Assembly (NCBI GenBank): GCA_046329575.1
Contig: JAXLUJ010000009.1
Location: 43,291-107,290, forward strand
Source: Chitinophagales bacterium
GTDB lineage: Bacteria > Bacteroidota > Bacteroidia > Chitinophagales > LD1
DNA: 64,000 bases
Reading direction: 5' to 3'
In this document: piece after piece, positions 14,190 to 45,102 of the stretch
Numbering within the stretch: the first letter of the stretch is position 1
How the letters are laid out: each line of letters opens with the position of its first letter
Notes under the pieces: generated by a model
Seen by the model: only the letters and a program-made list of their open reading frames with translations
What the model was told of the DNA's origin: nothing
The model's database searches: none
Position numbers and translations under genes: made by a program

Positions 14190-14580
14190 TCTTATATTCC
14201 TTTTCGGCCAGCGTAATCATACGCTCATAGAGCTCCGAACGAAGTTGTTCGTCTGCCAAACGTTTCTTTAAACGAGCGATTTCAGCCTCCAACATACTGA
14301 GAGACGCCTGCGACTGCTTTTGCGGATCTTTTGATTGAGACAAAGGAAAATCGTTTAGTGCCGCAAAATTACGTAATACTTTTGGTGCATATGGGTCCGC
14401 ATAACCTGCTTTTCGTAGCCACTTGCAAATTATGCCATGGCCGCTCAGGCCATATTTGCGCTCAATGTGCTCTTTGGGCTGACCTGTCTGAAGATATTCA
14501 TCTATAACTTGCTGTTTAAATGATGGTGAATAATAATAAGAGCCTGCAGGTCGTTTCGGATCTTGTTCTTGTTTTGTGTC
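14152..14580 (-). pseudogene. Outer IS orfA body, severed from its start codon by the nested IS
   Basis: Joining 15877..15871 to 14580 and downward reads ATG GAC ACA AAA, giving MDTKQEQDPKRPAGSYYYSPSFKQQVIDEYLQTGQPKEHIERKYGLSGHGIICKWLRKAGY...LEAEIARLKKRLADEQLRSELYERM (HTH plus leucine zipper). The nested IS sits inside codon 2-3. Confidence 0.75.
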
Positions 14581-14641
14581 TGAAGCCCCCCCTAAAACTA
14601 AGATAGGTTAAAACCAGACTGAAAGCACTAATTTCAGTTTT

Positions 14642-14914
14642 ATGAGAAAATCAAAGTTCACGGAAGCGCAGATTGTAAAGGCGCTGGATGAGGAACAGAA
14701 AGGCCGGAAGGCCGAAGACATTTGCAGGGAACTTGGCGTTAGCCGGGCAACGTTTTACCAATGGAAATCGAAGTATGGCGGAATGGACGTAAGCCATTTG
14801 CAACAACTCAAGGCATTGCAGGAGGAGAACCGCAAGCTTAAAGCGATGTATGCGGATTTGGCCTTAGATCACCGCATTCTCAAAGAGGTCATCGAAAAAA
14901 GTTGTAGGGTCTGA
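14642..14914 (+). CDS. IS copy 1 orfA (HTH transposase subunit); C-terminus altered by loss of one A in the slippery run
   Basis: 90-aa ORF identical to copy 2 orfA up to EVIEK. It then reads SCRV, where copy 2 reads KL. Confidence 0.7.
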   Translation: MRKSKFTEAQIVKALDEEQKGRKAEDICRELGVSRATFYQWKSKYGGMDVSHLQQLKALQEENRKLKAMYADLALDHRILKEVIEKSCRV

Positions 14915-14981
14915 ACAGAAACGGCAACTGGTACACCAGCTCAAACAAGAGCAGGTATCAGTACGGTTCGCCGCCCGGATC

Positions 14982-15854
14982 ATGAATATATCCATTGCAG
15001 CCGTTTACTATCAATCGAAGAAGGATGACTCAGCAGTTGTTGCTAAACTCAATACTTTAGCTGAATTAAAGCCAACCCGGGGTTTTGACTATTACTTTGG
15101 CCGTATTCGCAATGAAGGCTTCACATGGAACCATAAGCGGGTGAAACGCGTTTATGATGCGCTACAACTCAATCTGCGGCGCAAAACGCAAGCGAAAGTT
15201 ACCAGTGCGTGAAAAAGTTCCATTACTGCGCCCTAGTGCGCCCAATCAAATGTGGAGTATGGATTTTATGTGCGATACGCTGGCTTGTGGCCGCAAGTTC
15301 AGAACGTTGAACATCATAGATGAGTTTAACAGCGAATTGCTGGATATTGAGATTGACTTTTCGCTACCAGCCAAGCGCGTTATCCGTACGCTGGAAAGAG
15401 CTTCTGGTGCCATGGCAAGCCGATGGCCATACGCGTAGACAACGGCCCAGAGTTCATTAGCAATGCGCTGGAATCATTTTGCAATCAACCGCAGAACAAC
15501 ATTAAGCTGTCTTTTATTCAAAAGGGAAAACCCACTCAAAATGCCTATGTAGAACGTTTTAACCGAACCTTCCGGGAGGATGTGCTGGATGCGTACTCGT
15601 TTAGAACCATTTATCAGGCCCGCAGCGAAGCAGCTTGGTTCCTGGAGGATTACAACAGCCATCATCCTCATGAAGCCCTTCAGGGCATGAGTCCGATTGG
15701 CTATCGCCATGCTGTTGAAAGTGGAAAACTCGCCCCGCGCCAATCCCCGCCGAGTTTACCACATTGCAACAGCGGAACTAATAATAACACCAATAATAAA
15801 TTTTTAACTTCAAACATTGTTAACCGCAAAAAGTCTGGAAATACCCTGTATTAA
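14982..15854 (+). pseudogene. IS copy 1 orfB (DDE integrase), split into three frames
   Basis: ORFs 14982..15212, 15154..15438 and 15423..15854 together reproduce the 290-aa copy 2 OrfB, with frame breaks at A3 to A4 (about 15184) and CC to C (about 15402). Confidence 0.85.
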
Positions 15855-15919
15855 AAATGGGGGGGCTTCATGTCCATTTATAGTTTACATTTTGTGTAAA
15901 CCTATTTTAGGACAAGACA

Positions 15920-15956
15920 GCCTTCGGCTCGCCTTTCCGCCCCCTCACGGAATGCT
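15920..15956 (-). repeat. GC-rich intergenic repeat, copy B, right part
   Basis: gccttcggctcgcctttccgccccctcacggaatgct continues the repeat exactly where 13176 left off. The first 3 nt are the duplicated target. Confidence 0.85.
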
Positions 15957-15961
15957 TGGGT

Positions 15962-17530
15962 TTAGCGGATAACCAGTTTACACATAGTTACAATTTGATC
16001 ATCGCCTGAAAGCGTGGCCATATAGTATCCCGGCGGCAGGTTAGGTAGTTCAGCATCATAATAACTGGAGTAATGGGGCACAACAAAAGAGGCAACATTT
16101 TGCCCCATCGCATTGGTAAGCTGAATTTTTACATGATGGTAACGGTCCCATTCCACCCAGTTGTAATCAAAGCGCACAGCCTGGGAAGCCGGATTCGGTA
16201 AAGGAACCATCCAGGGCTGCCTGCCGGCAGCCTTTAGGCCATCCGGCAGCCCGTTGTATAACGTATCACAAGTAGCGCCCATTTTGCGGCCCAGCCTGTA
16301 ATTTGGAAATAATGGAATGGAGGATGGCATGTTCTTATAGGTTCTGTACTTTCGCCTTCTGAAATCGCAGGCGGCGCCGGTCAAATCGGGTTTCTCTATC
16401 GTATTGATGAAAACGCAAGCTACGGTTGGGCTAATATAAATTTTGCCATCCGGTCCGTAACCGCTGAAGTCGAAAGCACTAATCGCACCAATGATAGAGT
16501 CGATAAAGTTGTCTTGGATGGCAACCGTATCTTTTCCGGCATTTACATCTGCATCATAAAGGTGGTATTGAAAGATGTAATAACCAGCTACCATATACAC
16601 TAATGAATCGTTAGATGCAATCTCAGCAGAAGAAAAAAAATCGGATATCCCACCTAAAGTAGAATCGCGTGGCAGGAAGGTATCTATGATGATGGGATTC
16701 GATAAACGCCCGTTGCATCGGTCAAAGTCAAAAACAGCAGAATTATAAAATCCGGTATGACGCAGCATTTTTTTACCGCTCATCGAAAATACAGTTTTCC
16801 CTCCCGAACCGCCGGGTACCACATTGCCTAAACATTGCTTTTCCACAAAATAAAAGGAATCTTTAGTGAGCAGGTATTTGTGATAGCAGTTGCTGTAAGC
16901 CTCCATGATTATGATCCACCAGTCGCGGCCATTGCCATGGCGGCAAACCCCCAAATGACCGCCGGTGTTGATAGTGCTGTCGATGGCCACATTTTTCCGG
17001 GTAACATGATAGCGTCCATTAATTGGGTTTTTCACTATAGTGGTGTAGTTAAGATAAGAGTTCCAGGGCGCCTCCAGCAGCCCCACATTAATATGAAACA
17101 AATAGATGGTGCTGTCGGTTGGTGCGATTTGCACAAAGGCAAAAGCGCCATAAAGTGCTAACCCGGCATCATTTCCCACTGTAAACTGGTGGCAATATTC
17201 CCACAAGCCGCCATAACCAATACTATCGCCATTGGGAATAATGGCGCCTGCCGTATCAAAAATCCAAAGGCCGTTGGTGTATAATTCCAGATTTCCGGCA
17301 GTATCGGAATAGCTGGTATTGGCTGCATCAAACGCTATATTTCTCTTTTTAGGATAGTGTTTGAATGTATCCAGAAAGGTGGCTTCTTCATTACCGGAAT
17401 AGGGGAACTGTGTACTATCCTGATATTGGGGATGATCGCCCCACATCCACGTATTATCATGCTTTTGTGCATTACTATAAACCCACAAGCAGCAGGCCAA
17501 ATAAATTAGTGTCGTTTTTCTTATTTCCAT
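15962..17530 (-). CDS. Secreted T9SS cargo protein, function unknown (522 aa)
   Basis: Signal peptide MEIRKTTLIYLACCLWVYSNAQ. The C-terminal ~80 aa, PNPASQAVRFDYNW...YYMATLSGDDQIVTMCKLVIR, fits a T9SS sorting domain. Its start overlaps the upstream giant gene's stop by 10 nt. Confidence 0.75.
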   Translation of the reverse strand: MEIRKTTLIYLACCLWVYSNAQKHDNTWMWGDHPQYQDSTQFPYSGNEEATFLDTFKHYPKKRNIAFDAANTSYSDTAGNLELYTNGLWIFDTAGAIIPNGDSIGYGGLWEYCHQFTVGNDAGLALYGAFAFVQIAPTDSTIYLFHINVGLLEAPWNSYLNYTTIVKNPINGRYHVTRKNVAIDSTINTGGHLGVCRHGNGRDWWIIIMEAYSNCYHKYLLTKDSFYFVEKQCLGNVVPGGSGGKTVFSMSGKKMLRHTGFYNSAVFDFDRCNGRLSNPIIIDTFLPRDSTLGGISDFFSSAEIASNDSLVYMVAGYYIFQYHLYDADVNAGKDTVAIQDNFIDSIIGAISAFDFSGYGPDGKIYISPTVACVFINTIEKPDLTGAACDFRRRKYRTYKNMPSSIPLFPNYRLGRKMGATCDTLYNGLPDGLKAAGRQPWMVPLPNPASQAVRFDYNWVEWDRYHHVKIQLTNAMGQNVASFVVPHYSSYYDAELPNLPPGYYMATLSGDDQIVTMCKLVIR

Positions 17531-20500
17531 AGGATTACACTTCGTTTATAAATGATTCGGTCGGCTTGCATCAGGCGCAACTGATAGAATCCCGGCGACA
17601 GATTTTCGGTAAGCATAGAAAGCGTATTGCCGCCATTCGGAGCGCCCTGACGCAAAACGATTTCACCTAAATTATTAATTAGTTCCACGGTTTCGCCCTG
17701 ATACGTACCTCCATAAAGATATAGCACCAGATGATCATTAGCAGGAATGGGATAAACGCGGTACGATCGGTTTTCATTGGCTTTGGTGCTATCAGTAGCC
17801 ATTTCTTTTTTTAAGGCGATACCGGCCTGATCGCAGAAATCAAAATCGTCATAACTTTCAACCGCAATGCCGCTCAACATAGCCCTGGCATTGAAAACTG
17901 CATTCCCGGCTTCCAGATAACACGATTGAGCCAGTTGAACCAAAAAATTGAATTGGCCCTCCTCGTATTGGAGATTAGATGAATCTATTGTTTTCAAGTA
18001 AAGCAGATTTACGGCTTTGGTATAATCCTGGAAATTAGCGTTAGTAGATAATGCTTGCAAAGCGCTGAGCAAATGCGCACGGCGCTGATCAAAAATATCA
18101 CGCCAGGGCGCCCGGATATTTTGTTGAATCACCCGTTCCGCTTCCACATAATCTTGCAAACGTTGGTATAAAGCCTGATTGGTGGTATCCGTAAGGGTGA
18201 CGGAAGTGTCAGGGTTTACCCCGGAAGAATCAATTAACTGCAACCAGGTGGTATCGTTATTTGAGGCGCTGTCTAAGGCAACTAATGCGGCTGCAAACGA
18301 TTGCTGGCGGGCCACACTTTGGCTTAACGAAAGCATTGCCGTTTCGTTCATAGTATAAAGTTCGCGTTGCAAGTGTTCCACTTCCGCGAATTTTCCCAAA
18401 GGGGTGTTGGCTACCGAATCGTAAAACATTCTTTCAACACTTTCCTCATCCAGTGTGTCGGCAATAATGCCCAGTTTTTCCTGCAGGGCTTTAGCGGCTT
18501 CCCAACGGTTTACCTCTTCAAAAAAATCGGGATGGTATTGATTCATCAAAACCATTTCATCGAATTCCGTAAGCTCGCCCGCTTGCACCAACGGCTGCTG
18601 TGTGGTGTTGTTGTCATCACAGGACGGAACAACAGATACTGCTGGGTCATATTTGAACCATTGCGAAGGTCCTATAATTGTATTAGTAGTCGGGCTTTGG
18701 GCGCTACTGCCGGGAGGAATAGGAACACGAAATTGTGATGGTACTCCCTGGAATGCTGAATTCTGATTCCATCCTGCCAGGTTTTGGGAGGAATAATTGC
18801 CGTTCCAGTTATTGCCTTTGGCTTTTTGCTTACCCATTACGCCAGAGGTGGTAATGTGAAGCCCCACATAATTGGCGATGGCGCCATGCCCAATATCATT
18901 CGTTTTAAAATCAGTACCGGAATTCTGTCCTTCAAACCGGAAACCGGCCTTTAGTCCGTAAGCCATATTGCAACTCACCAGCTGGTGGCCGCCGCTATTT
19001 TGAGCAAAACAAAACCCGCGGGGGTAAAGATTGGTATTGTTTGCTGCTCCAGAGGCGCCAGGCAAAACCCCGTAAGCAGTATTGCTTAATACGTCAAAAT
19101 TGCTGCAATTGCTAAAACGAAATGCATTTCTGGTGGTGGCTTGTATCACATTGGCCTTTACCAGATTTCGCTCAACTACCACATTAGCAGCGGTATTATA
19201 AATTCCAGATACATTGGTCATCGATATACCTTCCGCACCATTTTTCAGGCTTACCTTGTTATTGGTAATTTGAAGAGAAGGCTGCTGGCGCGACAAATCA
19301 TCAGAAATGGAGATGCCTACTCCAAGGTTGGCAATGTTCAGCGATTGCTGTATAGTATTAAAGAAGGGCCATTTATCAACTGTAATTGTGTTATCCTGAA
19401 TCTTATGGGCAAACAAATTTACTCCACTTCTGCAAAAATTTAAAACAACACCGGTTGACCAGGGTTCTGAAAAATTAATCGATAAACCCTGACCATCATA
19501 CTGAGTAGGCAAAGTACCAAAACTACTTCCCAGCATATCAATTTTGTTTAATTGGATGGTTATGTTGGATTCAGTACAGTTATTCAGTATGATGCCATTA
19601 AGGCAATAGTTCATGATGTTATTATAAATATATGGTTCGTAGTTTTGTTCAATTTTTATAGCCTTTCTACAACTTTTAAAAAAACAGTTAGAGATATTAA
19701 TACCGGTAATCGCATTGGCTGGATTTGTTTGATTTTTGTTGTACGCATAAATCGCATTTCCATTTCTGGCGCCGGTTCCACCGGAATTTACCGGGAGGTT
19801 GTACTGAACATATGCCCGTGGTCGATCCTCGGCAGGTATGGCATAAAACTGGCATTGCCTGAAGTAAGCCGAACTATGTTTTACAATTGCACCATTAGCC
19901 AGATTACTGAATTTGGCACTGAGCGCTGTGCGGGAGGTAGGTTGGAATAAATTCAGATAGATACCTGCCCATGCCCACATATTATCACCATCCGTAATTG
20001 TACTTGCAGCAGGCATATCGGTTTCATTAATCATACCTGGAAATGGCTTTTTAAAATTGGTAGTTCCCTCAAAACGAACATTTGATCCCATTCTAATGGA
20101 ATAAGAAAACATCGGAGCCGGTAAAATGGCGGAAGATCTTGATGCACAAACGCCAATAAAATTGTCACGGAAAGTAATTGAGCCATATAGGCAGTTCAAA
20201 TCACTATTGTGTTCTAGATAAACCGCATACTGAGCATCTTGAATTTGAACTCTGTCTCCGAACGTAAGGCCCCCGTTAGGATTCACATGAAATCCTTCCC
20301 ACAAACAGCTACCAATAGATTCGAATGTGGTATTTTGAACGCTAAGACGGGCGTTGGAATTGACGATGATATTCGCTCCCGGATAAAGCAGAAACCGGAC
20401 ATTACTGAAGTTGTAATTCGTATTGATGACCAATTTCCCCTGAATAGCAATGGTAGTATTGGCCGCGGGTGAAAAGCCTGAAGTTGGCCAACCCTGAGCA

Positions 20501-23500
20501 GTAATTACATTATTGAGCTGGTTTGTCCCGGATAAAACAATTGAGGCTGGTGAGAAAAAATTAAATGAAGTAGAGGCAGACGAGCCATTGGTCTGTGTTA
20601 CAGTTACGGAATAAGTACCGGTTTGGTACGGGGTCAAACTAGACCCGGAATTATTCAGAGGGGAATTATTAAAACTCCATTGATAGGTTTGTCCGGCCGG
20701 AGCAACGAATTCCTGTACACCGCAAGCGTTAAGTTGACAAGGTAAAATATTTTGGGTAACACTAGCGGTACATCCATTGGGAGCTGTGGCAGTAACAGAA
20801 TATGCACCAGAGCTGCCTACTGAAATGGCCGAGGTATTTGCCTGATTTGACCACATGAAGGTAGATCCTAACGAAGTTGAAGTCGCCGTGATCGTTGCAC
20901 TTTGAGGGGGACATATTGCTTGAAGATCTGCAGATACAGTAACAACAGGATGACATGCTCCATTGACTAGCGGGCCACCTCTGAATGTAGATATAGTTTC
21001 AGTTTGGTTGTTTGGATCACAATATGTTACATAGCGGAATCTTACCGGAAGATCTGGAAACGTAACCGTATTGCAAGGTATATCCAAATCAAATTTTATG
21101 CAGAAGACTCCGTCATTATTATTAAATCCAAACCCTGCATCTACACCCCATAAATTTGCAGCGGTGAATCCTGTTAAGGAAGTACTGGCTAAATTTAATG
21201 AACTCAAATTAACATCATAATCCTTATTGTTGCCGTTCTGAACAACTGTAATACGGTTAGACGGAAAGGCAATTACAATTCCTCCGGGTAAATTATTTGA
21301 ACTGATGTTAAAGTTAGATGGCGTATAATTATCAGGCAAAGAAAATAATATATGAAAATTTCCAATGCCCCCAGATGATGCAGAGTTTAAGCAAGCGCTA
21401 ACTTGCACCGGATTACAATTAGATGCACCAGGTGTAATGGTCGAATTTATCGCTTCGATATGAACAGAATTAATCTTTAAATTAAAATTAAATTGAGACG
21501 GATTATTGCAAAAAGTATTTTGCGTTAACTGATTAATTTCAGGGAAAGGTGTTTCACATCGCCAACTGTACAATATAGGAACAGGCACAAGGTTATCCGC
21601 TGCAGTACATCCGTTAAGCGTAAAATTGATCCTAAATTTCGTAGGGGTATTTACAATCGTTTGAAGGTCGTAAGATAAATAACAGGACCCATTTACTTGT
21701 ATGGTAACAGGATTGATAGTTTGCCAAATATTATTACTCAAGTATTGAACATTGGTCACTGAGAGATCTGTACTTCCATAATTTGCATTCAGAGGAATGG
21801 GAATATTAACCGTACCGGCTGCATTACATGGAAGCATAATCTGAAGATAAATATTTGTATTCTCAGCACCTTGGAAGCCATTTATCCACGGGAAACCGGT
21901 TATGGCGAAGTCTGAGATTATTTCGCTTCCTGTTTGAGTGTTTGATAAGTTAGTAATCTCTAGATTACTATACGATGGAACACTTAAAATGTAATTACCA
22001 TTTATAATATTCCCATCACTTCTAGATGTATGAGCTTGACAATCTGAGTAGCTATTGTATTCAAAATAGGAATCATTTCCTTTTACTGAGTAGGTGCTAT
22101 TTATAGACGTTGTTTGTTGACATAGGGCATGAATGTTAAATCGAGCTCCTTGTTCGAAATATTCATCTCCTAACAAAAGTGTTGGAATATTGTTGATTTG
22201 TACGGTATTAAAAGTGCATAAAGGAGTAATGGCGACCGGATCATTGTAATTTTGTAGAATACCGGATTGGAGTTCTGAACATGTTGAATATTGTGCATTT
22301 AATACATTCAATTCGAAATTAGCTGGTAACACCGGATTAGCCCCCAATCCGTTAGCAGGAATTATTTGGTTATTAGCGCCTAAACAGGAAACATGGCTTA
22401 CTGCGTAAAGATTTCGTTGACTATTGGAATAGGAATAACCTGCAGTGTAAAATTCGACTAATTCCGGTATGAAATTATTAGCTAACGATCCCAAATGAAG
22501 TTTTACTGGATCGTATGCCGGATTTAGTAAACCTGAAAAGCTACCTCCTGACATTAACAAGGGTCTACACTCGTTATGAAATGCATTATAAGCTCCATCC
22601 GCATCAACATAGCGTACGGTCTTGATTCGAAGTTTATCCATACAAGTATTGCTTGGTTTCCACTCCTCAAAATTCCTTTCCTTTATGCTATATACTTTAT
22701 GGATTGCGCCGCCGGCACCTTCACACATGAAGTAAACCAATAAGTTTGGAGAAGCTGAAATGAATGGCCGTGGCGGGGTGGGAACGCTATTCGGAGGTGT
22801 AGGAGAAAAATAAGCGGAATTTAACACTCCCGCACTAGAAACACCGGAATTGCTACTAATAACATTTACAATCGAATTCGGTAAGCTATTAGTTGTTAGA
22901 AACATTGAATTTGTACAACTTAATTCTACTGAATTCGCAGGATTCTGGCATATTTTGAATTCCGGTAAAAATTGAACGGACGAGGCAATGTTGAACTCCG
23001 TTAGATTCAACCCTAAAAAGTCTTCGGCACTGACATGATATAAAAAAGTGACGTTATTTCCAGAAACCACTGAAACTGGGTTTTGAAGGTTAATAATGGA
23101 TGCCGGAATAACACTATTGGGTTGGAAGTAAGCAACATTTCCTCCAGTTGGCTGTAAATTCACCAGATTTGCATTACTGATATTGATCTGATAGTACATA
23201 TCCTTCAATACAACTTGCCGATTTAGTAAAGCCGACCAGTAAGTTTTCCAATCGGAGTATTGATAGCCAAAGCTATGATCAGAGGTACCGTCAAAAAAGA
23301 CTCCTTTGAAATTTGCTCTGAGATGATCCCCAACTATAGATGCGAGTTGATCGACTTCAGGATGAGTAAGAAGGTAGTTCTGGTCAATAGGTGTTATATT
23401 TTGACCATTCACATCAGCAAGTCCGTCGTCGTCGTCGTCTTGATATCCGAAATTAGTTCGCTCAAGTCGGAACGCAGAGTGATCATCTGGAAGGATGCCT

Positions 23501-25665
23501 GGCGTAACACAGCCAGGACATAAAACGTTAAAAGAAAAGCATTGGTCGTTTAAATTAATGAAACAGTCTGTTTGTCCCCCGCAGTCTTGACTGAAACTTG
23601 TTAGTACGTGTAAATCCTGATGACCGTGTTCTTGACCATCAGGCCCAATTTTTAGCGGACAACATCCTCTTACCCAAAAGTGTAACTTTGAGTTTTTAAA
23701 GAAACTCTTGAATTCTTGACAGTTATTTAATTGCAAGGTAGCGATGTCAAACTTTGCGACTATATGCGGTCCAGTATTTGTTATTTCTATTCCTAAAGTG
23801 GGTAACCAGTTTGTTGTACCATTGCTAATGTATGGAGCCGTGGAGTTTGCAGGAATACCATTGATCGGACAAGAAATTAAAATATTTGAAATGTTATTTG
23901 GGCCATCATCAAAAAGTATCTTAAATACTCCACCTGGACTGCCATTTGGACTCGCGCAAAAAAATTGGCAATCGTAATCATTCGCGTCATTATTAGGGAA
24001 ACTTATATTTTTGATCGTATATTCCTCAGGTTCGCTACAGCTATTTGAACTAGGATTAAGGCCAAAATCGGTAAGATCTGTAACTAATTGTTGGTGCGAT
24101 TGGATCAATTCGAGATCAGGGTCATTTTGATTTGGTATTGAGCTATTAGTACTTATACCCGCCATAGTGGTAGGTAAATGAGCTTTATATAAGTTTGTGA
24201 TTTGTCCGTTATTAGCTGTATAAGTACTGTTTTGAGTATTTAGTGTGTAACCATCAACACAATTTTCCTTGTATTTACCCGTAAATGCCCAATGGTTGAA
24301 AAAAATTGGATTATTAAACCCAACGTTGTCCGGACAACATCTAAAAGTTTTAAATCTGATGCTTAACTGATGTCCTGGAGGTAGCGTTTCCACAAACAGG
24401 TGCCAGTCCTTTATAAATACGTCATTTTGGAAACAGGCTGGTGGTGGAAATGACTGGTCGGCAGCTGTTAAAAAATTTGTAAAGGGGTTATTTTGCTGCA
24501 CGCCGCTGAAAACAGCATTGTTTGGTATCGCGAGCGCATTAACATAGTTAAAACTATGAATGTTATTTGCATCATTAATTATGATTGATGCTCTATCAAT
24601 ATAAGTATAATCCGTGTTAAGAGGAGCATAATTGACTAAATTTAATTCAATATCTGATGCCGTTAAATTAGTACTTTCATTAGAAATCAGAAACTCCCAC
24701 TCTTGTTCGGTATTAGTGCAACTATTATCCCAAAACTCCTGATTAGAACTAAAGGGTATCGGTGAAACCCTATATATGTGCACGAAATCCTGATGATTGG
24801 CGTTGTTAAATATCACATTTAACGCTGCTGTGCTTTTATTTGGGTTACAAGAACAACCCCACAACAAGTTAAAATTAGTATTTAGGCCGCCACTGGGCAG
24901 GCAGCCGGTGGCACCAGAAAGGAATACGTCCTGTTCGATTCGTAAATGGTCACCATGGTGCAAATTAATACCGATAGTTAGTAAATCAACATTTATAGGG
25001 AAAATAACAGAATTTCCGCCCTGACCATTGGCCGTAAAGAAGGGTTGCGTTGCATTATTTAGGTAAAATCGAACACTGGTAATATTCACAATAAGCGGTA
25101 TTGAAGCGGCACCGTCAAAAACAAGGGACCCATAAAAGTCCTCCGAACCATTATTAATGTATTCATGACTAACTGTTTGAGTTTGTCCTACTCCGATTTG
25201 GAAGTTCATGGAGTTAGGTAGTAAATAATGGTCGATGAAAGGAAATTTAAAAGGAGTACTTAAGGTGCCTGAAATGGTTGCAGTTGTGGTAATTATTATG
25301 TTGAATGTGGCAGATGCGGCATTCATCGCCGGTATTGCATTACATAGGCCGTCTATTATGTAGTCTATTTTTTGGTTAGGGTTGGAATTTAACACAGTAT
25401 GGTCAAAACTAAATTTTAATACAGATCCTTGTCTGATTACAGAAAATCCCGCGGGTAAAGTGGCATGATAGTTAAAGGCAACCGTTGGCAAAGTCACATC
25501 TATAACGAAATCAGCGTTTACAAAATTTGATGTTGTTAAAGAAAGCGTGTTTGATTCACAAGCATTCACTGCTGTGGGCATAGTTGAATGAACCTCCTGC
25601 GCCTGAATGTTTTTTGAAAATGTAAGGGTTATTAGAAATACGGTTATAATTAGGTTTGTTTTCAT
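17521..25665 (-). CDS. Giant secreted T9SS cargo protein (2714 aa): N/S/T-rich N-terminal region, Ig-like modules, parallel beta-helix repeats, helical region, T9SS CTD
   Basis: A single uninterrupted ORF with signal peptide MKTNLIITVFLITLTFSKNIQAQ. Ig-like segments include ICPPQSATITATSTSLGSTFMWS...YSVTATAPNGCTASVTQ. Around residues 1700-2250 there are repetitive N-x-x-F/I-x-x-N segments typical of right-handed beta-helix. The C-terminus, YRVYPIPANDHLVLYL...FYQLRLMQADRIIYKRSVILWK, is CTD-like. Confidence 0.85.
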   Translation of the reverse strand: MKTNLIITVFLITLTFSKNIQAQEVHSTMPTAVNACESNTLSLTTSNFVNADFVIDVTLPTVAFNYHATLPAGFSVIRQGSVLKFSFDHTVLNSNPNQKIDYIIDGLCNAIPAMNAASATFNIIITTTATISGTLSTPFKFPFIDHYLLPNSMNFQIGVGQTQTVSHEYINNGSEDFYGSLVFDGAASIPLIVNITSVRFYLNNATQPFFTANGQGGNSVIFPINVDLLTIGINLHHGDHLRIEQDVFLSGATGCLPSGGLNTNFNLLWGCSCNPNKSTAALNVIFNNANHQDFVHIYRVSPIPFSSNQEFWDNSCTNTEQEWEFLISNESTNLTASDIELNLVNYAPLNTDYTYIDRASIIINDANNIHSFNYVNALAIPNNAVFSGVQQNNPFTNFLTAADQSFPPPACFQNDVFIKDWHLFVETLPPGHQLSIRFKTFRCCPDNVGFNNPIFFNHWAFTGKYKENCVDGYTLNTQNSTYTANNGQITNLYKAHLPTTMAGISTNSSIPNQNDPDLELIQSHQQLVTDLTDFGLNPSSNSCSEPEEYTIKNISFPNNDANDYDCQFFCASPNGSPGGVFKILFDDGPNNISNILISCPINGIPANSTAPYISNGTTNWLPTLGIEITNTGPHIVAKFDIATLQLNNCQEFKSFFKNSKLHFWVRGCCPLKIGPDGQEHGHQDLHVLTSFSQDCGGQTDCFINLNDQCFSFNVLCPGCVTPGILPDDHSAFRLERTNFGYQDDDDDGLADVNGQNITPIDQNYLLTHPEVDQLASIVGDHLRANFKGVFFDGTSDHSFGYQYSDWKTYWSALLNRQVVLKDMYYQINISNANLVNLQPTGGNVAYFQPNSVIPASIINLQNPVSVVSGNNVTFLYHVSAEDFLGLNLTEFNIASSVQFLPEFKICQNPANSVELSCTNSMFLTTNSLPNSIVNVISSNSGVSSAGVLNSAYFSPTPPNSVPTPPRPFISASPNLLVYFMCEGAGGAIHKVYSIKERNFEEWKPSNTCMDKLRIKTVRYVDADGAYNAFHNECRPLLMSGGSFSGLLNPAYDPVKLHLGSLANNFIPELVEFYTAGYSYSNSQRNLYAVSHVSCLGANNQIIPANGLGANPVLPANFELNVLNAQYSTCSELQSGILQNYNDPVAITPLCTFNTVQINNIPTLLLGDEYFEQGARFNIHALCQQTTSINSTYSVKGNDSYFEYNSYSDCQAHTSRSDGNIINGNYILSVPSYSNLEITNLSNTQTGSEIISDFAITGFPWINGFQGAENTNIYLQIMLPCNAAGTVNIPIPLNANYGSTDLSVTNVQYLSNNIWQTINPVTIQVNGSCYLSYDLQTIVNTPTKFRINFTLNGCTAADNLVPVPILYSWRCETPFPEINQLTQNTFCNNPSQFNFNLKINSVHIEAINSTITPGASNCNPVQVSACLNSASSGGIGNFHILFSLPDNYTPSNFNISSNNLPGGIVIAFPSNRITVVQNGNNKDYDVNLSSLNLASTSLTGFTAANLWGVDAGFGFNNNDGVFCIKFDLDIPCNTVTFPDLPVRFRYVTYCDPNNQTETISTFRGGPLVNGACHPVVTVSADLQAICPPQSATITATSTSLGSTFMWSNQANTSAISVGSSGAYSVTATAPNGCTASVTQNILPCQLNACGVQEFVAPAGQTYQWSFNNSPLNNSGSSLTPYQTGTYSVTVTQTNGSSASTSFNFFSPASIVLSGTNQLNNVITAQGWPTSGFSPAANTTIAIQGKLVINTNYNFSNVRFLLYPGANIIVNSNARLSVQNTTFESIGSCLWEGFHVNPNGGLTFGDRVQIQDAQYAVYLEHNSDLNCLYGSITFRDNFIGVCASRSSAILPAPMFSYSIRMGSNVRFEGTTNFKKPFPGMINETDMPAASTITDGDNMWAWAGIYLNLFQPTSRTALSAKFSNLANGAIVKHSSAYFRQCQFYAIPAEDRPRAYVQYNLPVNSGGTGARNGNAIYAYNKNQTNPANAITGINISNCFFKSCRKAIKIEQNYEPYIYNNIMNYCLNGIILNNCTESNITIQLNKIDMLGSSFGTLPTQYDGQGLSINFSEPWSTGVVLNFCRSGVNLFAHKIQDNTITVDKWPFFNTIQQSLNIANLGVGISISDDLSRQQPSLQITNNKVSLKNGAEGISMTNVSGIYNTAANVVVERNLVKANVIQATTRNAFRFSNCSNFDVLSNTAYGVLPGASGAANNTNLYPRGFCFAQNSGGHQLVSCNMAYGLKAGFRFEGQNSGTDFKTNDIGHGAIANYVGLHITTSGVMGKQKAKGNNWNGNYSSQNLAGWNQNSAFQGVPSQFRVPIPPGSSAQSPTTNTIIGPSQWFKYDPAVSVVPSCDDNNTTQQPLVQAGELTEFDEMVLMNQYHPDFFEEVNRWEAAKALQEKLGIIADTLDEESVERMFYDSVANTPLGKFAEVEHLQRELYTMNETAMLSLSQSVARQQSFAAALVALDSASNNDTTWLQLIDSSGVNPDTSVTLTDTTNQALYQRLQDYVEAERVIQQNIRAPWRDIFDQRRAHLLSALQALSTNANFQDYTKAVNLLYLKTIDSSNLQYEEGQFNFLVQLAQSCYLEAGNAVFNARAMLSGIAVESYDDFDFCDQAGIALKKEMATDSTKANENRSYRVYPIPANDHLVLYLYGGTYQGETVELINNLGEIVLRQGAPNGGNTLSMLTENLSPGFYQLRLMQADRIIYKRSVILWK

Positions 25666-25683
25666 AGTGAAGCCCCCCCATTT

Positions 25684-26646
25684 TTAATACAGGGTATTTC
25701 CAGACTTTTTGCGGTTAACAATGTTTGAAGTTAAAAATTTATTATTGGTGTTATTATTAGTTCCGCTGTTGCAATGTGGTAAACTCGGCGGGGATTGGCG
25801 CGGGGCGAGTTTTCCACTTTCAACAGCATGGCGATAGCCAATCGGACTCATGCCCTGAAGGGCTTCATGAGGATGATGGCTGTTGTAATCCTCCAGGAAC
25901 CAAGCTGCTTCGCTGCGGGCCTGATAAATGGTTCTAAACGAGTACGCATCCAGCACATCCTCCCGGAAGGTTCGGTTAAAACGTTCTACATAGGCATTTT
26001 GAGTGGGTTTTCCCTTTTGAATAAAAGACAGCTTAATGTTGTTCTGCGGTTGATTGCAAAATGATTCCAGCGCATTGCTAATGAACTCTGGGCCGTTGTC
26101 TACGCGTATGGCCATCGGCTTGCCATGGCACCAGAAGGCTCTTTCCAGCGTACGGATAACGCGCTTGGCTGGTAGCGAAAAGTCAATCTCAATATCCAGC
26201 AATTCGCTGTTAAACTCATCTATGATGTTCAACGTTCTGAACTTGCGGCCACAAGCCAGCGTATCGCACATAAAATCCATACTCCACATTTGATTGGGCG
26301 CACTAGGGCGCAGTAATGGAACTTTTTCACGCACTGGTAACTTTCGCTTGCGTTTGCGCCGCAGATTGAGTTGTAGCGCATCATAAACGCGTTTCACCCG
26401 CTTATGGTTCCATGTGAAGCCTTCATTGCGAATACGGCCAAAGTAATAGTCAAAACCCCGGGTTGGCTTTAATTCAGCTAAAGTATTGAGTTTAGCAACA
26501 ACTGCTGAGTCATCCTTCTTCGATTGATAGTAAACGGCTGCAATGGATATATTCATGATCCGGGCGGCCCGAACCGTACTGATACCCTGCTCTTGTTTGA
26601 GCTGGTGTACCAGTTGCCGTTTCTGTTCAGACCCTACAACTTTTTT
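25684..26646 (-). CDS. IS copy 2 orfB (DDE/rve integrase domain), expressed as OrfAB by -1 frameshift
   Basis: The ORF track gives 25684..26556 (290 aa). The frame stays open upstream to the slippery site (KKVVGSEQKRQLVHQLKQEQGISVRAARIMNIS...). DDE region: WSMDF...IRVDNGPEF...NAYVERFNRTFRED. Confidence 0.8.
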   Translation of the reverse strand, partial: KKVVGSEQKRQLVHQLKQEQGISTVRAARIMNISIAAVYYQSKKDDSAVVAKLNTLAELKPTRGFDYYFGRIRNEGFTWNHKRVKRVYDALQLNLRRKRKRKLPVREKVPLLRPSAPNQMWSMDFMCDTLACGRKFRTLNIIDEFNSELLDIEIDFSLPAKRVIRTLERAFWCHGKPMAIRVDNGPEFISNALESFCNQPQNNIKLSFIQKGKPTQNAYVERFNRTFREDVLDAYSFRTIYQARSEAAWFLEDYNSHHPHEALQGMSPIGYRHAVESGKLAPRQSPPSLPHCNSGTNNNTNNKFLTSNIVNRKKSGNTLY

Positions 26647-26900
26647 TCGATGACCTCTTTGAGAATGCGGTGATCTAAGGCCAAATCCGCATACATCGCT
26701 TTAAGCTTGCGGTTCTCCTCCTGCAATGCCTTGAGTTGTTGCAAATGGCTTACGTCCATTCCGCCATACTTCGATTTCCATTGGTAAAACGTTGCCCGGC
26801 TAACGCCAAGTTCCCTGCAAATGTCTTCGGCCTTCCGGCCTTTCTGTTCCTCATCCAGCGCCTTTACAATCTGCGCTTCCGTGAACTTTGATTTTCTCAT
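26634..26900 (-). CDS. IS copy 2 orfA (HTH plus leucine-zipper transposase subunit)
   Basis: 88-aa ORF, MRKSKFTEAQIVKALDEEQKGRKAEDICRELGVSRATFYQWKSKYGG...LKALQEENRKLKAMYADLAL, typical of IS3-family OrfA. Confidence 0.85.
   Translation of the reverse strand: MRKSKFTEAQIVKALDEEQKGRKAEDICRELGVSRATFYQWKSKYGGMDVSHLQQLKALQEENRKLKAMYADLALDHRILKEVIEKKL
26640..26646 (-). promoter_or_regulatory. Programmed -1 ribosomal frameshift heptamer A AAA AAG of IS copy 2
   Basis: The minus strand reads ATC GAA AAA AAG TTG TAG in the orfA frame. The orfB frame is exactly -1 from it. A_AAA_AAG is the classical IS3-family slippery motif. Confidence 0.6.
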
Positions 26901-27157
26901 AAAACTGAAATTAGTGCTTTCAGTCTGGTTTTAACCTATCTTAGTTTTAGGGGGGGCTTCAATAGGATAATAGTTTTAGACAGAAGTAAAATTTATTACT
27001 GAAACAATTTCTTGTTCTAAAGATAAACCAATAATTACAATATTTTTTTAAAAATTACAACCTACTTATATAACCCTCCTGTAGCCTGTCTTTCTACTTT
27101 CTGGCACAACTTTTTAGCCTACTTTCGCGCTTCTAAAATTCAATAGCTCTGTTCATT

Positions 27158-29584
27158 ATGCCGCGCGGCTTTCGGTGTTTACTTCTTATTTGGTGCTGGA
27201 TGTGTACGGTTGCCGCGTCGGCGCAACATACCGTTATGCTTCAGGGTCAGGTTACCGATGTAAAAAGCCTCCCGGTGAAAGATGCTATGATTTATCTGCC
27301 CAATCAACCGAATGGCGTGATGAGCAATGCCGGAAATTTTTCGCTGCAACTGCTCCCCGGAAATTATGCCATCACTTTCACTTCTGCCGAAATGATTCCA
27401 TTAACTGTAGCGGTACATCTTGCTCAGGATACCGTAATAACAGTGATCCTTCAAAAAGAACGCACGTTGAACGAAGCTGTTGTGAGTACCAAAAAGATGG
27501 AACGCCAAAGCCGTCATGATGCCGATGGCGTGATGAGTCTTACACCAGGAAATTTCAATTCGATACCCGCATTTATGGGCGAGCACGATCCGATGCGCGC
27601 CGTGCAGATGCAGCCGGGGGTTCAAAGCGGTAGCGAAGGGGGCAGAGGTATTTTTATCAGAGGCGGTAGTCCCGATCAAAATCTGATGCTGCTCGACGGC
27701 GCTCCTGTTTACAATCCATCGCATATCTACGGATTCATTTCAGTGTTCAATGGCGATGCCGTAGAAAGAGTTTCAATTTACAAAGATCGTTTGCCGGCGC
27801 GTTACGGCGGAAGATTATGCTCGGTAATTGATGTGGATATGGACGAAGGTAATACCAATCGGCTGAGAGGCGCATTGGCATTGGGAGTGGTGGCCTCGCG
27901 ATTCCATTTAGACGGACCGCTTTCACGCAATAAAAAAACAACCTTCTCGCTTTCACTTCGCGGTTGCTATATGGGTTTGTTCACCGGTCCTATTTCGCGG
28001 AAACAGTTTGCTGCATCAGGTTACAACGGCAATGTGCTCTATTATTTTGGCGATGTGAATGTGAAACTGGTTCATCGCTTTTCTGAAAAAAGTAAGCTTT
28101 CGTTTTCTTTTTTTACCAATAACGACTGGTATCAATTTTCCCGTAAAGGAGAAGCACATGTAAAAAATGTGTTGCAGTCGAGCAACACCGTAAATGAACT
28201 GAACTGGGCGAACTACGCTTCTACACTGGCGTGGAACCACCGCATCGGCGAAAACTGGAAACTGTTGCACCGCCTCACTTTCGGGCGCTACCAATTGCAT
28301 TCAAAAAACATTTACAACACCGCCGCCAAACTCACCGATATTCCGGGTGTAGAATACAATTTCAACTCCCAAAGCAACCGCTATTCTCATATCACCAACA
28401 TTAATTTTCAGAATGAAGCCACTTATTTCACCCAAAAACAACAATTCACTTTTGGTGTGGAAGTAGGGGAGCAGTTGTACCAAACCGGTACCGGAAAATC
28501 CAGTTCCGACGAAACCGGTTCGGGACGCACCGAATACGATTTGAACAACCCACTCATCAAAGCTACAGAAGTGGCCGCTTATGTTGATGAAACGTACACC
28601 CCCGTTCAGAATTTAACCATGCATTTGGGTTTCCATGCCCGGATGTATTATCAGCAGAAAGCTTTTGCCAGTTTGTTGCCCCGTTTCAGTTTAACCTGGA
28701 ATCCTTACAAGCGTTTGTTCTTACGCGGATCGGTTTCCGGTACTTTTCAGCCGCTTCATTTGCTCACGGCCGCCACGGCCGATATTTTCAGCGATTTGTG
28801 GGTGCCGGCTACAAAAGCAACAGCTCCCGAAACCGGCTGGAACTTTTCAGGCGGTTTACTGCACAAACTGCCATTGGGTTTTGAGTGGAGCGTAGATGGT
28901 TTTTATCGCTTAATGGAAAATGTGATCGATTACAAAGAAGGTGTTTCGCCGGGTGCGGCCGACGGCAATTGGCAGCAACAAGTGATGACCAATGGAATCG
29001 GACGAAGTTATGGGGCTGAATTTTATGTAGGCAGAACGTTTGGACGCATTAACGGCGCAGTGGCTTATACCTTATCGTGGAGCGATCGCAAATTCAGTGA
29101 AGTAAACGATGGCAAATTCTATCCTTACAAATACGACCGCAGACATAATCTGGCAGCGCAACTCACGTTTCAGGCTACCAAAAATATTGAACTCGGTCTT
29201 TCGTATGTTTATGGAAGTGGTTACCACTATACCCTTCCGGTGCAGTATTTTTATACCTATAGCGGCAATACTAATTTCGATTATCTGCATTCTATAAATA
29301 CCGCCACCAGCCGGGGCGAGAGTGTGCCGGTATATACTTCGCGTAATGGCTATCAACTTCCTTCTTTCCAACATCTGGATGTTTCATTTACGTGGCATAA
29401 GAAGAAAAAATATGTAGAGCATGAAGTAAACGTGAGTGTTTACAATGTGTACAGCCATTTCAATCAGTTTGCTGTGTATTCCGAAATCAAATTTAATCCC
29501 GACGGAACAGTAAGCCGTACCTATAAGCAGGTGAGTTTGTTCCCGGTGCTTCCTTCCATCACCTACACCATTCATTTGTTATGA
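27158..29584 (+). CDS. TonB-dependent receptor with N-terminal carboxypeptidase-regulatory-like domain
   Basis: 808-aa ORF with a signal peptide and a CarbopepD_reg-like region (LQGQVTDVKSLPVKDAMIYL). Plug motifs are PGVQSGSEGGRGIFIRGGSPDQNLMLLDGAPVYNPSH. A long beta-barrel ends in an aromatic-rich C-terminus. Confidence 0.9.
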   Translation: MPRGFRCLLLIWCWMCTVAASAQHTVMLQGQVTDVKSLPVKDAMIYLPNQPNGVMSNAGNFSLQLLPGNYAITFTSAEMIPLTVAVHLAQDTVITVILQKERTLNEAVVSTKKMERQSRHDADGVMSLTPGNFNSIPAFMGEHDPMRAVQMQPGVQSGSEGGRGIFIRGGSPDQNLMLLDGAPVYNPSHIYGFISVFNGDAVERVSIYKDRLPARYGGRLCSVIDVDMDEGNTNRLRGALALGVVASRFHLDGPLSRNKKTTFSLSLRGCYMGLFTGPISRKQFAASGYNGNVLYYFGDVNVKLVHRFSEKSKLSFSFFTNNDWYQFSRKGEAHVKNVLQSSNTVNELNWANYASTLAWNHRIGENWKLLHRLTFGRYQLHSKNIYNTAAKLTDIPGVEYNFNSQSNRYSHITNINFQNEATYFTQKQQFTFGVEVGEQLYQTGTGKSSSDETGSGRTEYDLNNPLIKATEVAAYVDETYTPVQNLTMHLGFHARMYYQQKAFASLLPRFSLTWNPYKRLFLRGSVSGTFQPLHLLTAATADIFSDLWVPATKATAPETGWNFSGGLLHKLPLGFEWSVDGFYRLMENVIDYKEGVSPGAADGNWQQQVMTNGIGRSYGAEFYVGRTFGRINGAVAYTLSWSDRKFSEVNDGKFYPYKYDRRHNLAAQLTFQATKNIELGLSYVYGSGYHYTLPVQYFYTYSGNTNFDYLHSINTATSRGESVPVYTSRNGYQLPSFQHLDVSFTWHKKKKYVEHEVNVSVYNVYSHFNQFAVYSEIKFNPDGTVSRTYKQVSLFPVLPSITYTIHLL

Positions 29585-44916: not shown

Positions 44917-44924
44917 GGTAGGAG

Positions 44925-45011
44925 CGGAGAGAGAGGGATTCGAACCCTCGGTACAGTTGCCCGTACAACAGTTTTCGAGACTGTCCCATTCGACCGCTCT
45001 GGCATCTCTCC
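44925..45011 (-). tRNA. tRNA-Ser (anticodon CGA)
   Basis: The reverse complement is GGAGAGATGCCAGAGCGGTCGAATGGGACAGTCTCGAAAACTGTTGTACGGGCAACTGTACCGAGGGTTCGAATCCCTCTCTCTCCG. It has a 7-bp acceptor stem, anticodon stem ACAGT/ACTGT with loop CTCGAAA, a long variable arm and a GGTTCGAATCC T-loop. No CCA is encoded. Confidence 0.9.
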
Positions 45012-45080
45012 GTGGGCAAATTTCAATTATTTTTTGATGGAAACCAGCTATTGTTGAGGAAGCATCATTTTGGCATAAAT

Positions 45081-45102
45081 AAAAAAAGCCCGCATCTGCG
45101 GA
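45081..45102 (-). terminator. Rho-independent terminator-like hairpin between the two tRNA genes
   Basis: The minus strand reads GTCCGC-AGAT-GCGGGC followed by T7. The plus strand also ends in a T-rich run. Confidence 0.5.

Follow-up and report, generated by a model that had tools for sequence, protein, structure and literature searches.

A two-gene cassette encoding predicted T9SS type A cargo proteins

The window analysed here, a 64-kb stretch of DNA taken as a whole, comes from a metagenome-assembled genome (MAG) of a Chitinophagales bacterium and carries a two-gene cassette in which both ORFs are intact. The explanation that we find best for the locus as a whole, and to which we give a moderate degree of belief, is that of a conserved two-gene cassette, both products of which are T9SS type A cargo, that underwent recombination and, later, IS insertions. 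The first gene (17521–25665, minus strand; annotated at NCBI as hypothetical protein U0T73_09210, MAG Chitinophagales bacterium) encodes a giant protein of 2714 aa and, in agreement with a preliminary description of this DNA, is a single ORF without interruption. The second, or partner, gene (15962–17530, minus strand) encodes a protein of 522 aa made up of a signal peptide, a beta-propeller at aa ~25–420 and a type A C-terminal sorting domain (CTD) at aa 445–522 (window positions 15965–16198). The 10-nt overlap that had been reported between the stop of the giant gene and the start of the gene for the 522-aa CTD-bearing protein is indeed present (17521–17530, minus strand; ATGGAAATAA). Inspection of five homologous loci revealed that the junction is an ATGA 4-nt overlap in four cases and an 11-nt gap in the fifth. 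The conservation of this tight junction, together with the type A CTD found in both proteins, upholds the earlier reading of the pair as a T9SS cargo operon.

The signal peptide announced for the giant was borne out by inspection of the sequence: the N-terminus resembles a Sec-type signal peptide (MKTNLIITVFLITLTFSKNIQA/QE), which would comprise aa 1–23 (MKTNLIITVFLITLTFSKNIQAQ; 25597–25665, minus strand). The N-terminus of the partner (MEIRKTTLIYLACCLWVYSNA/QK) looks Sec-like by the same kind of inspection, and the consensus of the partner family retains the '…AQK' site. When the sequence was reconstructed to its state before IS insertion, an in-frame TAA was found five codons upstream of the giant ATG, which is therefore taken to be the native start. 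The predicted T9SS CTD at the other end of the giant (17524–17775, minus strand; Pfam match at aa 2637–2711) could likewise be recovered, albeit as a borderline assignment on the full-length scan: for a cut-off of 27, PF18962 scored 28.9 bits when a 414-aa tile was scanned and 24.1 bits over the whole protein, and TIGR04183 scored 22.5 bits against a cut-off of 23, the CTD being all that NCBIfam found in the giant. PF18962 also matched all four aligned family members at E <= 1 (best E-value 2.8e-9), and the sole match of the C-module family profile in the PDB was a Por CTD chain, 8glj_D. The CTD of the partner scored 27.0 bits with TIGR04183 (cut-off 23), and the CTD of the giant matched type A models only. 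The window contains a further CTD cargo gene, for a trypsin-like protease (40162–41814; PF18962, 36.9 bits), and no T9SS machinery genes (SprA/Sov, PorK/L/M/N, PorU/V) were seen within the 64 kb. Surface location and cleavage or anchoring via a type A CTD are established biology (PMC9143113, PMC12618676), and by this biology the giant and its partner would be located at the cell surface or secreted.

Domain organization of the giant protein

The preliminary description had noted ~1500 aa of N/S/T-rich sequence with scattered cysteines and no nameable family. This holds: N, S and T together account for 28.5% of the N-terminal region, which contains 42 Cys and has no match in Pfam or NCBIfam, even when its first 1500 aa were scanned with Pfam in 400-aa tiles at E <= 1. 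Nevertheless, the region is a conserved Cys-rich all-beta module and not low-complexity sequence. This N-module (aa ~24–1560; 20986–25596, minus strand), rare and unnamed, contains 12 invariant and four nearly invariant Cys, a CPGC motif and a GYxDxDDDGxAD motif resembling a Ca site (alignment A3). An exhaustive phmmer search of 1.84 billion protein clusters yielded 27 representatives at E <= 1e-3, 11 of them at E <= 1e-30; other giants carrying the N-module include P0002, P0179, P0180 and P0181, and in P0181, P0189 and P0192 it is associated with other C-termini. Strands predominate in the AF2 model of the module, which is of low confidence (pLDDT 61.9), and with this model Foldseek found beta-sandwich arrays only (e.g. 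integrin legs, pilins and AgI/II), at a TM of ~0.1.

The N-module is followed by two Ig-like modules of the SprB/PKD type (aa 1561–1705; 20551–20985, minus strand). Such modules had been expected, and two could be confirmed by alignment at aa ~1572–1705, where the giant is 30–38% identical to modules that recur in 'gliding motility-associated-like'/SprB-repeat giants; the Pfam PKD match is sub-threshold (E-value 0.0029). The C-terminal ~1000 aa form the C-module, which is conserved and begins with a repeat-like region rich in Asn, continues with a probable helical region and closes with the CTD. The repeat-like region (aa 1706–2330; 18676–20550, minus strand; alignment A1) is detected in eight giants by an HMM built from A1. 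The next part (aa 2331–2630; 17776–18675, minus strand) is probably helical, judging from a composition in which A, L, E, Q, K and R make up 43% and G and P 5.7%; L002_g1, L003_g and P0131 have it in conserved form, and P0002 and P0180 match it more weakly.

The parallel beta-helix that the preliminary description saw in the repeat region could not be confirmed: tests for it (Pfam on family members, hhalign, autocorrelation and self-BLAST) were weak or negative throughout. Pfam beta-helix families (Beta_helix, NosD, pectate-lyase) had no match in the giant even at E <= 1, hhalign against the Beta_helix-positive P0181 aligned the CTD alone, and a crude hydrophobic autocorrelation gave no periodicity in the repeat-like region. 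These results bear on an enzymatic reading of the locus, according to which the giant would be a secreted or surface carbohydrate-active enzyme whose repeat region forms a catalytic domain of the pectate-lyase-type beta-helix kind, with the N-module binding the substrate and the propeller serving as accessory hydrolase or lectin. Polysaccharide degradation is the function of many T9SS type A cargos, aa 1706–2330 do contain Asn-rich motifs of the form 'I.NN.I......GI', and one of four family members shows a weak NosD match (E = 0.016), all of which would fit an enzyme. However, glycoside-hydrolase families are as absent as Beta_helix and pectate lyase from the Pfam matches of the giant at E <= 1, no catalytic motif was identified in the protein, and the family profile finds nothing but the CTD in the PDB, so that we consider an enzyme improbable.

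A rare and modular protein family

The family was assembled via the partner homologues and the genes upstream of them, and via the exhaustive N-module search. When the complete giant was the query, a word-indexed homologue search gave five matches, with a single full-length relative; when its C-terminal 1114 aa were used instead, Ig/SprB-repeat proteins dominated the result and the query itself was missed. The C-module alignment, run against the representative genomes of GTDB, retrieved one locus, on L002's own contig. No family member exceeds 35% identity to any part of the window giant, an exact-sequence look-up of the partner found no record, and a literature search found no description of the giant family or of the giant/propeller gene pair. 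We regard the giant as belonging to a very rare, unnamed protein family, moderately interesting as a new family but not as a new kind of system. Close relatives were absent from the databases searched. The suggestion that the operon belongs to the accessory genome matches the rarity of the family and the ICE-like context in which P0002 sits, and is plausible to that limited extent.

The full N+C architecture, with the partner, recurs in P0002, P0179, P0180 and partly P0184, at 24–32% identity. This recurrence in four other genomes indicates that the combination of the two modules is old and not a recent fusion. The proposal that the N-terminus is fast-evolving found no support, since identity to the full-architecture relatives is flat along the protein (25–28% for the N-module and 20–27% for the C-module).

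The partner is predicted to be a six- or seven-bladed beta-propeller (AF2 pLDDT 90.8, pTM 0.89); its matches in the PDB are propellers of a generic kind, and no PorP_SprF match was found in it. In all six loci examined (the window, L001, L002, L003, L009 and L010) the gene for a C-module-bearing giant is immediately followed by one for a homologue of the partner. More distant homologues stand alone (P0013, P0023 and P0025), which means that the propeller is not strictly giant-dependent. The closest relatives of the partner are those of L002 and L003 (37–38% identity), followed by L001, L009 and L010 (29%), and the C-module ranks its relatives in the same order (25–35% for L002/L003; 18–23% for L001/L009/L010). 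C-module and partner co-diverge, whereas the N-module has other nearest relatives: it is absent from L003, and in L002 only one ~120-aa subdomain of it remains, the N-terminal regions of these two loci being otherwise unrelated to that of the window giant. The family is therefore modular, and the earlier claim of a mosaic stands at this level. Synteny between the window and L002 had been suspected from a divergent upstream CarboxypepD_reg gene in both, and was rejected when tblastn revealed no homology between the flanks.

A compositional step within the giant gene

According to the preliminary description, the 5′ two-thirds of the giant gene are markedly more AT-rich than its 3′ third. A difference does exist, with 38.7% GC at positions 19417–25665 versus 45.2% at 17521–19416 (window background 44.6%), but it is smaller than claimed, the line of 57% GC (18061–18120) cited for the 3′ part being the maximum of its region. 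The AT-rich part also extends further than stated, over approximately the first three-quarters of the gene. At third codon positions, GC3 is 0.327 for codons 1–2083 versus 0.450 for codons 2084–2714, with residuals after amino-acid correction of −0.144 and −0.024, respectively. The step is significant, with a t value of −5.6, whereas the largest value in 300 permutations was 3.5. The best single breakpoint falls at codons 2083–2098 (window position ~19.4 kb), and the transition takes place between codons ~1650 and ~2100 (~20.7–19.4 kb), in a zone (19416–20715) with a GC3 of ~0.32 upstream in the gene, that is at higher coordinates, and of ~0.45 downstream.

The 5′ part also departs from the genome in tetranucleotide usage. 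The correlation with the genome signature was r = 0.257 for the 5′ 6.2 kb, compared to 0.650 ± 0.040 in the background, where no segment fell below 0.564, while the 3′ part (1.9 kb) together with the partner gave 0.612 against a background of 0.540 ± 0.065. The partner has a GC3 of 0.475, equal to expectation. These values sustain the idea that the gene is a mosaic in composition, its 3′ end being native-like. To tell effects of amino-acid content from nucleotide signature, the 5′ part was recoded according to the codon usage of the background; the result was informative only in part, as recoded native genes also lose most of the signature. The compositional breakpoint lies off the module border at which the nearest relatives switch; as a divider of phylogenetic affinities inside the C-module it was rejected, all sub-parts being closest to L002/L003.

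We infer that recombination is the source of the step. Most likely, the 5′ ~5–6 kb, which encode the N-module plus the beginning of the C-module, would have come from an AT-richer donor allele, and the 3′ ~1.9 kb and the partner would have retained the resident composition. Alternatively, there may have been no transfer, the AT-rich 5′ part reflecting a bias intrinsic to the family (weaker synonymous selection, or selection favouring AT-rich codons in the long distal part) in a rare resident gene inherited vertically. Steps in the same direction, from low GC3 at the 5′ end to high GC3 at the 3′ end, reach significance in P0179 (t = −11.3) and in P0180 (t = −5.3), L002_g1 being a weak, borderline case (t = −4.2), and the giants of the family generally have a GC3 below the GC of their own locus. 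On the other hand, P0002 and L003 have no step, and in P0179 it is the C-module that is the outlier (GC3 0.63 versus 0.44 for the partner, at a locus GC of 0.46), a situation that fits module exchange better. In addition, the flat protein divergence along the molecule makes no relaxed constraint on the N-part evident, and the GC-normalised tetranucleotide signature is lost in the 5′ part, at ~10 SD under background. An intrinsic bias is, in our judgement, a rather unlikely alternative to recombination.

The step could also be an artefact of assembly, in which case the contig would join two co-occurring populations inside the C-module. The source is a MAG, and the two IS copies described below differ by homopolymer-length indels alone, suggesting long-read consensus errors. 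Nonetheless, the 8.1-kb reading frame remains unbroken across the transition zone, and, as no other family member is more than 35% identical to any part of the giant, nothing points to a second copy similar enough to cause a chimeric join, which makes an artefact very improbable. A Logan assembly of run SRR26348422 matched 5216 nt of the window without mismatch, the 19.4–20.7 kb zone lying outside the match. Recombination with an AT-richer allele remains the origin of the step that we favour.

Independent IS3 insertions on both sides of the operon

The mobile DNA that had been noted on both sides of the operon corresponds to two copies of one IS3-family element. Copy A (14581–15870, plus strand; 1290 nt) lies 91 nt downstream of the partner gene and is inverted relative to copy B (25668–26961, minus strand; 1294 nt), which ends in TGAAGCCCCCCC...GGGGGGGCTTCA and lies 2 nt upstream of the giant ATG, with its transposase in the same direction as the giant. 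The orfB of copy B (25684–26556) scored 189 bits with the IS3 transposase model NF033516 (cut-off 160). The elements show IS3 hallmarks, namely TG...CA ends, a 4-bp target duplication and an A7G slippery motif, and their ends (TGAAGCC...GGCTTCA) have four matches in the window. The homopolymer-length indels between the copies amount to six bases at five sites. The outer junction of copy B with its flank was reproduced in the independent Logan assembly.

That two near-identical 1.29-kb copies in inverted orientation, 9797 nt apart, bracket exactly two genes might suggest a composite transposon that delivered the operon as one unit of cargo. However, a separate target-site duplication of 4 bp flanks each copy, TGTC for copy A (14577–14580 and 15871–15874) and ATAG for copy B (25664–25667 and 26962–26965), so that the outer flanks differ, and the two must be regarded as independent insertions and not as the ends of a composite transposon. 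Moreover, once copy B is excised together with one ATAG, a normal 5′ region and an intact ATG are recovered, and the 3′ part of the giant gene and the partner are native in composition. We therefore consider delivery by such a transposon extremely improbable.

The order of events that we favour would have the two copies inserting independently, later than the recombination. Insertion of copy B would have severed the operon from its native promoter and displaced its native 5′ region (26962–27157), which is common to the operon and a divergent TonB-dependent receptor gene (27158–29584). The operon would now be transcribed from or through the IS, or else be silent. Consensus scans for promoters and terminators, which followed sigma-70 rules ill-suited to Bacteroidota, gave counts no higher than in shuffled sequence. 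An IS 2 nt from a start codon would make this locus a natural case of an operon cut from its promoter.

Proposed function and comparison with known systems

A possible scheme is that both proteins would cross the inner membrane by Sec and would then be exported by the T9SS via their CTDs to the cell surface or the medium. The C-module would be cell-proximal and the propeller would act together with it or upon it, and the N-module would form the distal, ligand-contacting part, giving an adhesin-like action. This role is suggested by a beta-sandwich array like that of adhesin or pilin stalks, in a model of low confidence; propeller and C-module would cooperate physically. C-module and partner would be inherited as a unit, and the N-terminal part would be exchangeable. 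A bolder version is that the giant and the CTD-bearing propeller form an undescribed T9SS surface-fibre system, the propeller being the assembly or anchoring partner of the C-module and the ~1500-aa head being swapped by recombination within the C-module. We think this version unlikely; were it true, the propeller would be to a type A cargo what SprF/PorP partners are to type B cargos.

Bacteroidota genomes commonly encode giant orphan surface proteins, most of which are left as 'hypothetical'. Here, one of them could be resolved into two large, conserved and unnamed modules, which are two candidate new domain families. The compositional step within the gene, which several members of the family share, suggests that such surface proteins diversify by exchanging modules. 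The understanding of the T9SS is unchanged by these results, whose value lies in annotation and in the generation of hypotheses, such as the testable one of a dedicated beta-propeller partner for a type A cargo.

Like known T9SS type A CTD cargos, e.g. the gingipains of P. gingivalis (PF18962/TIGR04183), both proteins have a Sec signal peptide and a terminal CTD of ~75 aa and occur in a Bacteroidota host. Unlike those cargos, the giant contains ~2500 aa that belong to no described family, and a dedicated CTD-bearing beta-propeller gene paired with a type A cargo is, to our knowledge, not a described feature. The flanking elements conform to the NCBIfam IS3 model, as other IS3-family elements do, and differ from composite transposons by the separate target duplication of each copy. 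A parallel in organization may be drawn with the SprB/RemA-type gliding adhesins of Flavobacterium and Cytophaga, which are also large modular T9SS surface proteins with Ig-like modules and a small co-transcribed partner gene beside them. In SprB-type proteins, though, PF13573 repeats are numerous and the CTD is of type B (PF13585/TIGR04131), whereas the giant has a type A CTD and gave no PF13573 match, whether scanned whole at E <= 0.01 or tile by tile at E <= 1. The partner of SprB-type proteins is the outer-membrane protein PorP/SprF (PMC9143113), whereas the partner in this cassette is a soluble-type propeller that is itself T9SS cargo. Gram-positive AgI/II and CNA-type adhesins, as well as pilins, differ from the giant in secretion and anchoring system and have no sequence relationship to it, and the fold matches reach a TM of ~0.1 with a low-confidence model. 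What the giant would share with them is a predicted beta-sandwich array and, at the level of the family, a conserved cell-proximal part combined with a variable distal one.

Organization of the operon and anatomy of its products

The GC content of the window is 44.1%. On the minus strand, the ORF of the giant (17521..25665, 2714 aa) is followed by that of the partner (15962..17530, 522 aa), the two overlapping by 10 nt (ATGGAAATAA). The NCBI entry for the giant, on a 169-kb contig, reads 'MAG: hypothetical protein U0T73_09210 [Chitinophagales bacterium]'. The neighbours of the operon are ordinary chromosomal genes, including those for 2-oxoglutarate dehydrogenase E1, LepA, FolD, a GT2 glycosyltransferase, a TonB-dependent receptor, Sua5 and ThrRS. 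A pair of neighbouring tRNA-Ser genes, with anticodons CGA and TGA, lies at 44924-45203 on the minus strand. A further T9SS cargo, a 550-aa trypsin-like protease (40162-41814, minus strand), carries a clear Por_Secre_tail (36.9 bits), and T9SS sorting signals are therefore used elsewhere in the genome.

The N-terminus of the giant resembles a Sec signal peptide, and because removing the IS insertion from the sequence places an in-frame TAA five codons before the ATG, this ATG is the native start. Residues ~24-1560 (the N-module) contain 28.5% Asn, Ser and Thr as well as 42 Cys, and gave no Pfam or NCBIfam match, even as 400-aa tiles at E <= 1. An exhaustive phmmer search with residues 101-1300 against 1.84 billion cluster representatives nevertheless returned 27 proteins at E <= 1e-3, 11 of them at E <= 1e-30, and the region is a genuine conserved module. 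In an alignment of 16 sequences, 12 Cys are invariant and another 4 nearly so, and the motifs CPGC and GYxDxDDDGxAD are present. Beta-strand predominates in the AlphaFold model of the N-module, which is of low confidence (pLDDT 61.9); the PDB matches of this low-confidence model, at TM ~0.1, are beta-sandwich domain arrays, among them integrin legs, pilins, AgI/II, CNA and macroglobulin-type proteins. Residues ~1572-1705 form two Ig-like modules, with 30-38% identity to repeats of SprB-repeat/'gliding motility-associated-like' giants. The second conserved module (C-module, residues ~1684-2714) comprises a repeat-like region rich in Asn, another region whose composition favours helices, and the T9SS C-terminal sorting domain (CTD), which scores 28.9 bits against a Pfam threshold of 27 on a tile and is borderline in the full-length protein. 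The beta-helix proposed for the repeat region in the preliminary description could not be confirmed.

The partner lies above the cut-off of the type A CTD model (27 vs 23 bits). Its homologues number more than 870; most are CTD proteins of ~500 aa from Chitinophagales and Saprospiraceae MAGs that carry no other annotation as proteins. Its AlphaFold model, based on an 82-sequence alignment, is confident (pLDDT 90.8, pTM 0.89) and consists of a beta-propeller followed by a CTD sandwich. In the PDB it matches propellers of a generic kind with six or seven blades, lactonase-like or YncE-like, at TM 0.3-0.4 and ~10% identity, so that the fold is clear but no activity can be read off.

A conserved gene pair with separable modules

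In six of six cases examined, a propeller gene follows a C-module giant. For the two closest homologues of the partner, P0006 and P0007, the gene immediately upstream encodes a giant CTD protein (2868 aa and >3333 aa, respectively), with a 4-nt overlap in both cases; only the C-terminal ~1100 aa of these giants are common with the window's giant (26-27% identity). The word-indexed search yielded P0002 (2670 aa) as the sole full-length relative of the giant, and the exhaustive search yielded two more, P0179 and P0180; all three possess both modules and have a partner homologue downstream (HMM E-values 1e-105 to 1e-141). An ATGA overlap joins the two genes in four of five homologous loci, with an 11-nt gap in the remaining one. 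More distant homologues of the partner are stand-alone genes.

At the P0002 locus (L001 1-9932; contig JBFOML010000981.1, GCA_040959605.1), the cassette adjoins genes characteristic of integrative conjugative elements, encoding a TrwB-type coupling protein, two tyrosine integrases, an N6 methyltransferase, an ArdC antirestriction protein and a SymE-like toxin. A gene of ~470-496 aa without Pfam match lies directly upstream of the giant both there (L001 8442-9932) and at the P0179 locus (L009 501-1916), the two copies being 47% identical. No counterpart was found in the window by tblastn, nor is there one upstream in loci L002 and L010, so the gene may be an optional third cassette member. The P0180 cassette sits beside ThiF+JAB fusion, metallo-beta-lactamase-fold and HTH genes (L010 297-5018), surroundings that may be defence-island-like. 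In L002, a second giant ORF (13544-21569, >2675 aa, GC3 0.51), matching neither the N-module nor the C-module, begins 2 kb downstream of the partner; giant genes therefore cluster at this locus.

The giant family is modular and rare. The N-module occurs without the C-module in, for example, P0181 (4033 aa, which also carries SprB repeats and a Pfam Beta_helix), P0189 and P0192, and the C-module without the N-module in P0131 and the giant of L003 (L003_g); in the L002 giant (L002_g1), one ~120-aa Cys-rich subdomain is all that is detectable of the N-module. Every sub-part of the window's C-module is nearest to L002_g1 and L003_g (25-35% identity) and more distant from P0002, P0179 and P0180 (18-23%). 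The partner ranks its relatives in the same way (37-38% vs 29%), and C-module and partner therefore have a common history; the history of the N-module is a different one. The N+C architecture, found in other genomes at 24-32% identity, is ancient, and the giant gene is thus no newly made fusion.

Composition of the giant gene

As an observation, the preliminary description holds for the most part but exaggerates the magnitude, and its interpretation is right in part. The line of 57% GC on which it drew exists but is a local maximum, mean GC being 45.2% at 17521-19416 vs 38.7% at 19417-25665. GC3 is 0.327 for codons 1-2083 and 0.450 thereafter (residuals of -0.144 and -0.024 after correction for amino-acid content), a step of t = -5.6 with a permutation maximum of 3.5; background tiles of 150 codons gave 0.465 +/- 0.049, and the partner, at 0.475, matches expectation exactly. 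Codons 1651-2100 are intermediate, placing the transition at ~19.4-20.7 kb of the window, within the start of the C-module and off any module border. The GC-normalised tetranucleotide correlation with the rest of the window is 0.257 for the 5' 6.2 kb vs 0.650 +/- 0.040 (minimum 0.564) for equal-sized background segments, and 0.612 vs 0.540 +/- 0.065 for the 3' part plus partner, the recoding control for this signature being informative only in part. A mosaic with a native-like 3' end is thus borne out by the GC3 step, the outlying 5' part and the native-like 3' part and partner. A fast-evolving N-terminal part, which had also been suggested, could not be demonstrated: along the whole protein, identity stays level in comparisons with P0002, P0179 and P0180, and the step is therefore not due to faster evolution of this part.

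No member of the family has a stronger GC3 step within the gene (t = -11.3, same direction) than P0179 (L009 1959-10754), where GC3 rises from 0.41 to 0.63 at codon ~2018, the exact start of the C-module, and returns to 0.44 in the partner downstream; here the C-module looks like the foreign piece. P0180 also shows a step in the same direction (t = -5.3) and L002_g1 is borderline, with no such step in P0002 and L003. We read these steps as repeated module exchange within the family, to which a compositional bias intrinsic to the family is a serious rival. Under module exchange, an AT-richer donor would have supplied the present N-terminal part of the giant in the window genome, in place of an earlier one.

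Flanking insertion sequences

Two IS3-family copies flank the operon, copy A (14581-15870, plus strand) and copy B (25668-26961, minus strand; transposase orfB 25684-26556). They are the same element in inverted orientation, with ends TGAAGCCCCCCC...GGGGGGGCTTCA and a transposase scoring 189 bits with NF033516 (cut-off 160). They differ by 6 bases at five sites (A6/A7, G2/G3, G1/G3, A4/A3, C1/C2), all homopolymer-length indels, with no substitutions. One site is an A7G slippery motif, of the kind usual in the programmed frameshifting of IS3 elements; the indels reflect either a frameshifted copy A or long-read homopolymer errors in the assembly. A separate 4-bp direct repeat surrounds each copy (TGTC for A, ATAG for B), indicating two independent insertions and ruling out a composite transposon as carrier of the operon. 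Both elements thus arrived later and independently, and no IS-IS inversion has taken place since.

Copy B ends 2 nt before the ATG of the giant, and the ATAG duplication (25664-25667 and 26962-26965) shares the 'AT' of the start codon. The operon's native 5' region (26962-27157) now lies 1.3 kb away, the native promoter region being displaced by 1294 nt. Moreover, orfB and the giant read in the same direction, with no terminator-like site between them in a simple scan. The Logan assembly of run SRR26348422 begins 29 nt inside the copy B end and its following 5.2 kb match perfectly; the junction is therefore no peculiarity of the MAG assembly. A third IS3-like element, different from these copies and apparently degenerate (~13242-14343, minus strand), consisting of three ORF fragments (rve-domain ORF 13242-13742; 13881-14189; orfA-like ORF 14152-14343), adjoins copy A; insertion sequences have therefore accumulated downstream of the operon.

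Comparison with known T9SS cargos

By sequence, the giant and its partner both qualify as T9SS type A cargos. In studied species, type A cargos undergo cleavage and are either joined to anionic LPS or released; type B cargos form associations with PorP-like partners (PMC9143113, PMC12618676). The giant differs from SprB-type adhesins, a class excluded here by the absence of SprB repeats, a type B CTD and a PorP/SprF neighbour. The literature searched yielded no account of a type A giant that has a CTD-bearing propeller as its partner. Within a known kind, the giant T9SS surface proteins, the giant represents a new, unnamed family variant, of interest chiefly for its conserved propeller partner and its exchangeable N-terminal module.
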